From the NCBI GenBank assembly GCA_001662655.1, contig KV460229.1: a stretch of 64,000 nt of DNA. The stretch is one strand, 5' to 3'. The DNA is from Pseudogymnoascus verrucosus. Its lineage: Eukaryota. Below the pieces are notes generated by a model. That model made no database searches, had not been told where the DNA came from, and worked only from the letters and a program-made list of their open reading frames with translations. The translations under genes were made by a program, and so were the position numbers. This document shows, piece by piece, positions 59,192 through 60,916 of this stretch (the first letter of the stretch is position 1; each line of letters starts with the position of its first letter).

Positions 59192-60916
59192 ATGGCAGCT
59201 CAACTTGATAACCCAAAGGAATACCAAAACATCTTTCACTGGGCTGAGACTCAAAAAGATGGCACTGTACCTTCCTTTGCGGTCAGGAAAAACGATCCCT
59301 ACGAAGTAATCCTCCCTATAACTATAATTTATGATGTAAAACTTATTGAAATTCTACTGTATAGTATCAAGCTGGATTCAACAACTAGTATGTATCTCTG
59401 TCCGCGACCTCACTTTGGAGCATTGGTACTAATGCTTGTGATAAAGCTTCGAATCAGAAGCTGTTCCTGGGACGATCCCACAGGGACAGAACAGTCCAAG
59501 ATGCGTGCGATTTGGCCTTTACGCCGAGCAGATGACTGCCTCGGCCTTTGTCGCCCCACGAAATGTCAACAAGAAAGCTTGGATTTACAGAGTTCGACCG
59601 GCGGTAGCACACGAGGGTTTCGTGAGTTTGATCTCAGCGGAGCTTCGGGACTTTCTTTACTGACATTAATGGCCCAAAGACCGACTTGCCAAACAATAAG
59701 GATACCGAAGCAAATTTCATGCCCATCAACCCCCACGTTCATATTTCTCCAACTCAAGTAGCTTGGCTACCATTCGACATCCCGGATGATGGCGAAGTCG
59801 ATTTTATTGCTGGACTGAAGACGATTGCCGGCTCTGGAGAGCCAACGCTTCGAGAGGGTATAGCAACTCATATTTATGCTGCCAACGCCAGTATGAAACA
59901 AAAGGCCTTCGTCAACTCTGATGGAGACTATCTGATTGTTCCACAGCAAGGCAGCTTGGACATCCAGACAGAGTTCGGTCCATTGTATGTCCAACCAGGT
60001 GAAATTGTGGTCATTCAGAGAGGTCAGCGTTTCCGCGTTGAGCTTCCAGACGGACCTTCTCGCGGGTATATACTAGAGATCTGGGGAGCAAACTTTGAGC
60101 TACCCGAGTTAGGACCTCTAGGTGCAAATGGACTTGCAAATGCTCGTGACTTTCTACATCCAAAGGCCAAATACGAAATCAAAAAGGAACGATGGGAGAT
60201 TGTGTACAAGCTAGGAGGGAAGTTGTTCAAGAGCACCCAGGGTCATTCTCCGTTTGATGTTGTTGCCTGGCACGGAAACTACGTAAGTCTCTAATGTAGC
60301 CATCCAACATGCTCAGCTATTAACTTTGTCATAGGTGCCATACAAGTATGATTTGACGAAATTTGTCAATGTCGGCTCTATTTCCGTGGATCATATAGAT
60401 CCGTCAATCTTCTGCGTGCTAACCGCCAAATCGCGTGATCCAACCGCCCCTCTTGCTGACTTTCTCCTATTCTCTCCACGATGGGATGTTGCATCTCATA
60501 CCTACCGTCCTCCTTATTATCACCGAAATGCTGCGTCTGAGCTGATGGGCCTGATCTATGGAAACTACGGCGGTCGCTCTGACGAATTTCAACCAGGCGG
60601 AATGTCTTTCGAATGCGGCATGGTGCCCCATGGAGTTGCGTACGAAGAGTTCAAAGATGCTTACGAAGCTGCGCCACCTGAGGTTCAGATCTCGAAAAAT
60701 TCCATTGCCTTCATGTTTGAGTCAAGCCGACCTTTTACAATCACTGATTATGCCTGGAACAGCGACAAGAAACACGAGCACGAACCAAAGATGTGGGATA
60801 ATTTGGTCGACAACTTCTCCACCCATGCCAAGGAGATTGAGGAAGCTTTAAGCCACGCTGCGGGTGGATCGAACACTTCAAAGGGGCGTGGATTTGAAAG
60901 CGGCTGTGCTCAATAG
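59192..60916 (+). CDS. Homogentisate 1,2-dioxygenase-like ring-cleavage dioxygenase (divergent HmgA paralog), multi-exon
   Basis: YQAGFNN..SEAVPG..GQNSP..GLYAEQ, NSDGDYLIVPQQG, LPELGPLGANGLANARDF, HSPFDVVAWHGNY, DHIDPSIF, PPYYHRNAASELMGLI and MVPHG. Confidence 0.9.

Follow-up and report, generated by a model that had tools for sequence, protein, structure and literature searches.

The window, a stretch of 64,000 nucleotides from Pseudogymnoascus verrucosus, carries an HGD-family gene that is probably an ortholog of Aspergillus niger MhdA, encoding a non-heme Fe(II) dioxygenase that has the fold of homogentisate 1,2-dioxygenase (HGD) and would cleave 2-methoxyhydroquinone, a compound released in lignin breakdown. 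Enzymes of this type have already been described, in A. niger in 2021 and, as related basidiomycete enzymes, in 2024. The preliminary description, which placed the gene at 59192..60916, was right about its ends, and the sequence verifies a start ATG at 59192 and a stop TAG at 60914-60916 on the + strand. The interval is not, however, one open frame: its unspliced translation contains many stops, whereas five predicted exons and four introns (59, 59, 58 and 52 nt, GT..AG in all four) would give a 498-aa product with no internal stops, the splicing being deduced from sequence logic and homology, as contigs from four runs aligned to the region show no joints. The exons are as follows.

59192..59305, + strand: exon 1, residues 1-38, comprising the clade-specific N-terminal extension; ATG at 59192, GT donor at 59306
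59365..59387, + strand: exon 2, 23 nt, YQAGFNN; splicing restores the conserved Y-Q-x-G-F-G/N-N and the frame
59447..59621, + strand: exon 3, start of HgmA_N, with AEQMTASAF; Pfam HgmA_N E 2.1e-21 (59448-59621)
59680..60282, + strand: exon 4, 201 aa, bulk of HgmA_N; Pfam HgmA_N E 1.1e-76
60335..60916, + strand: exon 5 and stop, 193 aa (P0001), HgmA_C with the iron site; Pfam HgmA_C E 4.2e-48

Both superfamily domains are present and in order, with HgmA_N in exons 3 and 4 followed by HgmA_C in exon 5, an HGD-family architecture common to the window protein and MhdA. Among structures, the exon 4 translation matches chain 9pz4 (2e-74) and human HGD (5.5e-59). An AlphaFold model of an ortholog 84% identical to the window protein (P0010, pLDDT 84.5), used as its stand-in, gives a Z of 49.9 over 402 residues (rmsd 1.6) in comparison with human HGD 1ey2 and of 48.2-48.5 with 4aq2, 3zds and 4aq6, bearing out in model form the HGD fold expected of the window protein. 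By this comparison, the fold is shared with canonical HGDs, both human (1ey2) and P. putida HmgA (3zds/4aq6), at Z 48-50. The N-terminal extension noted earlier is real and measures about 35 aa, as Pfam and TIGR01015 matches begin at residues 37-40 in orthologs versus 3-5 in a canonical HGD, and residues 9-37 are well conserved across 143 clade members.

The spliced product retains every motif first listed for it, including PPYYHRNAASE (His368, Glu374), VPHG (His404), DHIDPSIF (His325, the counterpart of human His292), AEQMTASAF and RNAASELMG. Three positions define its iron site and the substitution next to it.

60521..60541, + strand: HRNAASE with iron ligands His368 (60521-60523) and Glu374 (60539-60541), aligned to human His335 and Glu341
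60611..60613, + strand: Glu398, GAA codon, at the human His365 position in alignments to 1ey2 and 3zds
60629..60631, + strand: third iron ligand His404, CAT codon, aligned to human His371

All 42 sequences of alignment A1 have the same residues in the His368, Glu374 and His404 columns. Besides this 2-His-1-Glu iron site, the window protein has in common with canonical HGD the residues His292, Pro332/Tyr333 and the lid Tyr350 (human numbering). It differs from canonical HGD in its N-terminal extension, in its separate clade and in the residue at human position 365. In the PDB alignments, SFECGMVPHG of the window protein aligns to SLHSTMTPHG of human HGD and SLHGVMSAHG of the P. putida enzyme, and Glu398 therefore stands where human HGD has His365, in agreement with the initial reading of this codon. 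His365 of human HGD is a second-sphere residue, hydrogen-bonded to the iron-ligand Glu341. Glu occupies this position in all 121 close relatives of the window protein and in 76 of 76 metagenome loci readable there, and among the rows of the tree described below His is found in 29/29 of the His group and 0/24 of the window's clade. Glu at human position 365 is thus a clade signature, and in the sequences examined the column splits MhdA-type from His-type proteins without exception. The Glu clade departs from the His group at ten more positions, among them PHGP->PHGV and, next to the ligands, Met339->Ala. No discussion of an invariant His-to-Glu switch was found in the literature searched, a set to which Kato 2024 and Jeoung 2013 did not belong, and no MhdA-type structure appeared among the results listed in a search on methoxyhydroquinone/homogentisate crystal structures and active sites.

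Phylogenetic analysis agrees with the earlier view of a divergent HGD paralog. A tree of 60 rows places the window protein inside a 24-row Glu clade (SH-aLRT 99), which is nested in a 29-row fungal clade bearing Glu, Gln, Asp or Ile at this position (SH-aLRT 99); all 29 His rows, which are representatives rather than named fungal HmgA sequences, lie outside the latter. The window's clade is a tight, strongly supported group of Pezizomycotina, with exon 5 identities of 76-88% to relatives spanning at least five ascomycete classes, compared with 42-47% identity between the window protein and His-type representatives. Its members include Pc21g22500 of Penicillium rubens, A. flavus-group, A. fumigatus and A. 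fijiensis proteins and an A. awamori protein (P0435), the last found among the 40 members examined of the P0022 cluster, which has 169. Both kinds occur in P. rubens, the Glu-type Pc21g22500 and the canonical hmgA Pc12g09040, which adjoins fahA and maiA and serves the PAA-induced homogentisate pathway. The A. nidulans HmgA, AN1897, is a canonical HGD.

Several lines of evidence identify the window's clade with that of MhdA. In A. niger, MhdA (NRRL3_10111), annotated as an HGD, was identified as a methoxyhydroquinone 1,2-dioxygenase; according to the same report, the purified enzyme turns over methoxyhydroquinone, and deletion of mhdA abolishes growth on vanillin and leads to a build-up of methoxyhydroquinone (Lubbers 2021, PMC8336404). 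Fig. S4 of that report gives P. chrysogenum, A. oryzae, A. fumigatus and A. japonicus only two HGD-family proteins each, divided between the HmgA and MhdA clades (PMC8336404). For P. rubens, A. fumigatus, the A. flavus group and relatives of A. japonicus, the sole paralog other than HmgA belongs to the Glu clade. The window protein shares 82.1% identity over 486 columns, and the motif PG(S/G)xSFECGMVPHG, with the A. awamori ortholog, whose size (488 aa, 54.6 kDa) fits the 55.5 kDa given for His-tagged MhdA (PMC8336404). In addition, two loci (L074 and L060/L061) have the order MFS transporter, carboxylesterase, Glu-type HGD, which is that of the published A. niger locus, NRRL3_10109 (MFS)–omeA–mhdA (PMC8336404). 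Because the member species match, the A. awamori ortholog is 82% identical and this order occurs in two loci, the window clade is taken to be the MhdA clade, and on the same grounds, with protein size as a further one, the window gene matches A. niger MhdA as its putative ortholog. The relatives' representatives listed in the protein searches do not include A. niger MhdA itself or A. nidulans AN6390, and the FAMeDB supplement gives no accession for MhdA.

Since the protein lies outside the His-bearing HGDs and within the MhdA clade, a non-homogentisate hydroquinone, as first proposed, is the best reading of its substrate, a reading supported through clade membership; orthology, with the A. awamori protein 82% identical, points to methoxyhydroquinone. 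The ring of 2-methoxyhydroquinone would be opened between the hydroxyl-bearing and methoxy-bearing carbons, and the product, 4-hydroxy-6-methoxy-6-oxohexa-2,4-dienoate, would be converted to 4-oxo-monomethyl adipate and enter the 3-oxoadipate route. Glu398 may assume the proton-shuttling role of His365, acting on a substrate without a carboxylate arm. More tentatively, His365->Glu, Met339->Ala and PHGV may together act as a mechanistic switch, turning the HGD iron site from the carboxylate-bearing homogentisate to neutral methoxylated hydroquinones, the protein carboxylate giving the base or charge that the acetate arm of homogentisate would give in HGD; in the same tentative proposal, the enzyme and a PnpA/HspB-type ipso-hydroxylase would make up a portable two-gene module leading from a para-substituted phenol to a hydroquinone and on to ring opening, possibly with substrates beyond vanillate.

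The surrounding genes offer a candidate for such a partner and differ in several respects from those of the A. niger locus.

54258..55619, - strand: flavin monooxygenase, several exons; Pfam FAD_binding_3, nearest structures PnpA (2.8e-30) and HspB (3.1e-28)
57867..58904, - strand: metallo-beta-lactamase (MBL)-fold hydrolase ORF, weak Pfam Lactamase_B match; divergent from the HGD-type gene across a 287-bp spacer
56319..57481, - strand: 3-hydroxyisobutyrate-dehydrogenase (HIBADH)-like NAD(P) oxidoreductase; Pfam NAD_binding_2 and NAD_binding_11
51835..53499, - strand: MFS transporter, Pfam MFS_1; like the MFS gene of the A. niger mhdA locus by family only
38878..40650, - strand: carboxylesterase, candidate OmeA-like (4-oxo-monomethyl adipate esterase); Pfam COesterase, about 19 kb from the dioxygenase gene

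PnpA/HspB-type flavin monooxygenases are a hydroquinone-forming class, and the one 3.6 kb from the dioxygenase gene may convert a para-substituted phenol, vanillate for example, into the hydroquinone that the dioxygenase would cleave. The MhdA-type genes of L074 and L060 have an esterase directly upstream, with which the window carboxylesterase shares 52-63% identity. However, whereas omeA and an MFS gene adjoin mhdA in A. niger, the OmeA-like esterase of the window is some 19 kb away and its MFS gene 5.7 kb, and the genes adjacent to the window dioxygenase encode instead the MBL-fold hydrolase and the HIBADH-like reductase. Most other orthologous loci likewise have no adjacent esterase and MFS gene, and such adjacency therefore does not define the MhdA-type clade. 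The MBL-fold hydrolase matches AttM/AiiA lactonase and 4-pyridoxolactonase weakly and belongs to a fungal MBL family without assigned function, only generic fungal MBL clusters matching it in the Protein Atlas, while the oxidoreductase scores 201.7 bits against TIGR01692, under the cut-off of 291.6; a pathway role for either is only a guess. Neither was seen next to the closest orthologs (L003, L004 and L057). Gene context therefore does not settle the substrate, and it departs from that of the A. niger locus. An Fe-ADH gene at 33303-34481 was considered as a maleylacetate reductase and rejected, its NCBIfam matches being to generic Fe-ADH and all under the cut-offs. The product of a neighbouring gene is 99% identical to a Pseudogymnoascus protein.

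This unlike neighbourhood is one ground for considering that the enzyme cleaves a different hydroquinone (hydroquinone, dimethoxyhydroquinone or the product of the nearby PnpA/HspB-type monooxygenase) within a lineage-specific cluster of MFS transporter, flavin monooxygenase, HIBADH-like reductase, MBL hydrolase and dioxygenase. The enzymes nearest to the monooxygenase convert para-substituted phenols and pyridines into para-diols, and its pairing with the dioxygenase recurs in several fungi, its family lying beside orthologous HGD genes (L028/L029, L069/L070) and within 2-14 locus tags of the HGD-type ortholog in three named fungi. In addition, the HGD-like enzymes PcMHQD1 and PcMHQD2 (PcHGD1/2) of Phanerochaete chrysosporium cleave methoxylated hydroquinones, taking both methoxy- and dimethoxyhydroquinone (Kato et al. 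2024, as summarized in PMC11634970 and PMC12420386); the basidiomycete copies are described as products of recent duplication (PMC12420386), and PcMHQD1 retains some homogentisate activity according to review (PMC11634970/PMC12420386). A basidiomycete representative from Obba rivulosa (P0133) lies in the same fungal non-His superclade as the window protein, but it and the nearest PDB chain, 9pz4, have Gln where the window protein has Glu398, and identity between this Gln type and the window protein is only about 42-44%. By comparison, the 82% identity to the A. niger-group ortholog and the identical iron-site motif argue for the same main substrate, and the MBL and HIBADH-like neighbours do not recur next to the closest orthologs, making a different main substrate rather unlikely and cleavage of methoxyhydroquinone the preferred reading.

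It is far less probable that the gene encodes a second true homogentisate 1,2-dioxygenase isozyme serving tyrosine/phenylalanine breakdown, even though public annotations name the clade's proteins HGD and the protein retains its iron ligands along with His292, Tyr333 and the lid Tyr. Against TIGR01015, the bacterial hmgA equivalog model used for annotation, whose cut-off is 510.75 bits, five full-length orthologs reach 542.6-557.5 and a canonical representative 704, the window protein giving 244.5 and 178.7 bits when scored as exon pieces only; since orthologs pass the cut-off, the model is evidently blind to the split between HmgA and MhdA-type function. These scores, together with the retained His292, Tyr333 and Tyr350, mean that the window protein may have some homogentisate activity. 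However, it stands outside all His-bearing HGDs in the tree, and the His365 counterpart is replaced in every clade member examined. The characterised clade member acts on methoxyhydroquinone, with a deletion phenotype on guaiacyl compounds (PMC8336404), and the PAA-induced homogentisate pathway of P. rubens runs on the other gene. Canonical fungal HmgA genes (Aspergillus, Penicillium) are linked to fahA and maiA, whereas the window gene has no such neighbours: in agreement with the preliminary description, none of 260 window ORFs (stop-to-stop, at least 75 aa, six frames, whole window, a size limit that exon pieces under 75 aa could escape) contains an FAH or GST domain, the Pfam families of FahA and MaiA. 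Linkage of hmgA to fahA and maiA is common in some fungi and is no universal requirement. That the copy is decaying or inactive is scarcely credible: the only hint is that no full-length match of at least 90% was found among the proteins searched, though a neighbouring gene has one of 99%, whereas the 498-codon frame is intact once spliced with canonical splice sites at all four introns, every iron ligand is present, and codon differences from a close relative's public contig of about 98% identity comprise 13 synonymous and 6 non-synonymous changes, with differences denser in introns than in exons, so that the gene looks functional.

Collectively, the window gene would widen the range of the MhdA-type enzyme to a Leotiomycete. 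Cleavage of methoxyhydroquinone lets fungi open guaiacyl-lignin aromatics without prior methyl removal, and the methoxyhydroquinone route is listed as one of eight central fungal ring-opening routes in a 2026 database paper (PMC13094099). Because the clade is labelled homogentisate 1,2-dioxygenase almost everywhere and passes the curated hmgA equivalog threshold, pathway reconstructions would be expected to over-call tyrosine catabolism and under-call the catabolism of lignin aromatics. If the tentative switch at the iron site is real, a single residue would be enough to re-annotate many fungal proteins now called homogentisate 1,2-dioxygenase.

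The divergent dioxygenase gene at 59192-60916 (+) probably encodes an MhdA-type enzyme, a methoxyhydroquinone 1,2-dioxygenase like that of Aspergillus niger, as judged by sequence comparison. The window DNA is eukaryotic, and the unspliced translation of this stretch contains many stops. Four introns (59, 59, 58 and 52 nt), each GT..AG, separate five exons read from the sequence:

59192-59305, plus strand, exon 1
59365-59387, plus strand, exon 2
59447-59621, plus strand, exon 3
59680-60282, plus strand, exon 4
60335-60916, plus strand, exon 5

The spliced product comprises 498 aa with no internal stops. 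In Pfam searches, the translations of exon 3 (2.1e-21) and exon 4 (1.1e-76) matched HgmA_N and that of exon 5 matched HgmA_C (4.2e-48). Among the matches listed, the closest named relatives belong to the Leotiomycetes (Leptodontidium, Hyaloscypha, Cadophora and Pseudogymnoascus). Compared with a public DNA contig of about 98% identity, the window shows 28 differences over the dioxygenase stretch: 9 outside coding sequence, 13 synonymous codon changes and 6 non-synonymous ones. Three of these last six lie in the poorly conserved C-terminal tail.

All motifs quoted in the preliminary description (the Fe-ligand motifs, DHIDPSIF, AEQMTASAF, RNAASELMG and SFECGMVPHG) were found in the spliced protein. 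In alignments to solved structures, HRNAASE corresponds to human HRNCMSE (ligands His335 and Glu341), VPHG to human TPHG (ligand His371), and SFECGMVPHG to human SLHSTMTPHG and Pseudomonas putida SLHGVMSAHG. Because of this last correspondence, Glu398 (GAA, 60611-60613) sits at the human His365 position, bearing out the proposed His-to-Glu change. According to published accounts, His365 is a second-sphere residue hydrogen-bonded to ligand Glu341 and is proposed to aid deprotonation and proton transfer (bioRxiv 10.64898/2026.06.02.729205; PMC4019311). The protein also keeps counterparts of human His292 (in DHIDPSIF), of Pro332/Tyr333 (in PPYYHRN) and of the lid residue Tyr350 (in GNY). The N-terminal extension is also real and specific to the clade, with profile matches starting at residues 37-40 in orthologs versus 3-5 in a canonical representative, and residues 9-37 are strongly conserved across 143 clade members. 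When these 143 members were compared with 24 His-type representatives, 11 positions were fixed in the clade and unlike the His-group majority residue. At two of them, Glu398/His and Val406/Pro, each group is invariant (Val406 comes right after the PHG ligand motif); the others include Ala372 in place of Met (human Met339, lying between the ligands), Tyr362 in place of Phe, and the lid residues Gly385 and Arg386.

At the sequence level, Glu at this site is a clade signature. An exon 5 search for longer proteins returned 1325 matches, and the best 120 of these, 76-88% identical, span Leotiomycetes, Eurotiomycetes, Dothideomycetes, Sordariomycetes, Pezizomycetes, Lecanoromycetes and one Lipomyces; these 120 and the query all carry S[FY]E at the His365 site (121/121). 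Among 80 metagenome loci fetched, 76 were readable across the site and 74 of these have SFE or SYE; the remaining two were misaligned because an intron adjoins the site, and read directly they give SFECG, intron, VVPHG. In a library clustered at 50% identity, the entire Glu clade is reduced to one full-length representative (81% identical), and the next full-length proteins are at most 51% identical over the matched stretch. Another type of homogentisate dioxygenase (HGD) paralog, with 45-53% identity to exon 5, occurs in five metagenome loci (L075-L078 and L080), and its residue at the His365 position is Glu as well (S[FY]E[GQ]GHTPH). Thiolase, Lyase_1, CoA-transferase III and mitochondrial-carrier genes surround the L080 copy, and this setting suggests yet another ring-cleavage pathway.

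The 60 rows of a quick IQ-TREE analysis (LG+G4, SH-aLRT support only) were the spliced window protein, 23 close-clade members (every fourth of those at least 470 aa long) and all 36 library representatives of 380-699 aa; an 845-aa protein and shorter fragments were excluded. The window protein falls inside a 24-row Glu clade (support 99), nested in a 29-row clade (support 99) where the site is occupied by Glu, Gln, Asp or Ile and whose named members are fungi: Obba rivulosa (Gln), Beauveria and Cordyceps (Glu), Polytolypa (Asp) and Aspergillus multicolor (Ile). All 29 His rows, which are unnamed representatives with named fungal HmgA (canonical HGD) not among them, lie outside this 29-row clade.

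The likely function of the Glu clade comes from A. niger NRRL3_10111, annotated as homogentisate 1,2-dioxygenase, which Lubbers et al. 2021 (PMC8336404) showed to be MhdA; as reported there, its deletion abolishes growth on vanillin with accumulation of methoxyhydroquinone, and it shares 50.8% identity with A. nidulans HmgA. In Fig. S4 of that paper, P. chrysogenum, A. oryzae, A. fumigatus and A. japonicus give exactly two proteins each, one per HmgA/MhdA clade. Members of the Glu clade include Pc21g22500 (P. rubens Wisconsin 54-1255), proteins of the A. flavus group and A. fumigatus, and proteins of A. fijiensis, A. indologenus and A. awamori (P0435). The other P. chrysogenum gene, Pc12g09040, is described as the PAA-induced hmgA adjoining fumarylacetoacetase and maleylacetoacetate isomerase genes (PMC2657799). 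Species membership and the identity of Pc12g09040 therefore equate the Glu clade with the MhdA clade, a link that is indirect, drawn through shared species and not through the NRRL3_10111 sequence itself. Other observations agree with this assignment. P0435 (488 aa, 54.6 kDa) fits the tagged MhdA mass stated in PMC8336404 and is 82.1% identical to the window protein; the MFS – carboxylesterase – HGD order of the A. niger mhdA locus recurs in metagenome loci L074 and L060/L061, with a Glu-type HGD; and reviews credit two HGD-like enzymes of P. chrysosporium with cleaving methoxy- and dimethoxyhydroquinone (PMC11634970; PMC12420386). The multiple copies in many Pezizomycotina are described as pointing to ancient duplication and to divergence in function (PMC12420386). 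Separation from the His rows and this indirect match to the MhdA clade support the earlier proposal of a non-homogentisate hydroquinone substrate.

The AlphaFold model of P0010, an ortholog 84% identical to the window protein (pLDDT 84.5), gave Z 49.9 against human HGD and 48.2-48.5 against P. putida HGD, and the predicted fold is the HGD fold. By analogy with HGD, Fe(II) would be bound through His368, Glu374 and His404, and, considering also the published MhdA product, cleavage would fall between a hydroxyl-bearing carbon and the substituted carbon. Glu398 might act as proton shuttle in place of His365, on a substrate without the acetate arm.

In line with the preliminary description, which saw no FahA/MaiA partners in the window, no FAH or GST domains (their Pfam families) were found among 260 stop-to-stop ORFs, each 75 aa or longer, taken across the window. 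The neighbouring genes are as follows:

50393-51419, plus strand, second gene like 3-hydroxyisobutyrate dehydrogenase (HIBADH)
51835-53499, minus strand, MFS transporter
54258-55619, minus strand, flavin monooxygenase (nearest solved structures PnpA and HspB)
56319-57481, minus strand, HIBADH-like reductase
57867-58904, minus strand, metallo-beta-lactamase (MBL)-fold hydrolase, divergent from the dioxygenase gene, with weak lactonase-like matches
from 61475, minus strand, SDR
from 63057, plus strand, P450

PnpA (p-nitrophenol 4-monooxygenase) and HspB (6-hydroxy-3-succinoylpyridine 3-monooxygenase) exchange a para substituent for oxygen, yielding a quinone or para-diol, and vanillate hydroxylase works by this chemistry. 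Genes of this monooxygenase family adjoin Glu-type HGD genes in metagenome loci L028/L029 and L069/L070, and by locus tags lie 2 genes (Talaromyces rugulosus), 4 genes (Drepanopeziza brunnea) and 14 genes (Pseudogymnoascus sp. 05NY08) from a Glu-type HGD. The dioxygenase-adjacent esterase of L074 and L060 shares 52-63% identity with a carboxylesterase encoded at 38878-40650 (−) in the window. A second carboxylesterase-family gene (43172-44820, +) is 28-30% identical to the esterases of these loci, which resemble OmeA (4-oxo-monomethyl adipate esterase). Five of the 46 listed loci of at least 6 kb (L028, L029, L053, L069 and L070) match the window MFS, flavin-monooxygenase, HIBADH or MBL genes at E <= 1e-10; in L003, L004 and L057, the closest of the loci with long flanks, nothing matched at this threshold. 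In a Pfam scan of 18 long loci, the dioxygenase lies mostly amid unrelated housekeeping genes, and this sparse conserved neighbourhood counsels against over-reading gene context. For the flavin monooxygenase, a public Pseudogymnoascus sp. protein is 99% identical. Among the matches listed for the dioxygenase, no full-length protein exceeds 88%, the only closer match being a 192-aa exon-5 fragment (94%), and the annotation of that relative may lack the gene model or have it wrong.

Elsewhere in the window, 40993-42594 (+) holds a PcaC-like 4-carboxymuconolactone decarboxylase ORF (TIGR02425, 141 bits; cut-off 155.7), and after it, in the same orientation, a PcaD-like alpha/beta hydrolase whose matches to 3-oxoadipate enol-lactonase models stay below cut-off. 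The two form a pair of bacterial type, here in a fungal genome, and may belong to a single spliced gene. Other features are an NLR-like gene (20600-23694, +) in which an NPHP3_N/NACHT NTPase precedes a long stretch of ankyrin repeats, a complete ABC transporter gene (26508-30288, −), a UstYa-like ORF fragment (758-1150, −) of a mycotoxin biosynthesis family, and a Vac7 gene (13310-16216, −) inside a region (12000-16400) whose GC content is raised (0.59) and whose GC and AT skews are strong relative to the rest of the window.

Full-length orthologs score 542.6-557.5 bits on the curated hmgA equivalog model TIGR01015 (cut-off 510.75), and because the model accepts these proteins, the public records examined name the clade homogentisate 1,2-dioxygenase or leave it unnamed. 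As far as the literature was searched, the exceptionless Glu-for-His signature and the acceptance of MhdA-type proteins by this model may be new points. The window protein is an ortholog of a known enzyme whose biology has already been described, in a fungus where that enzyme is unstudied.
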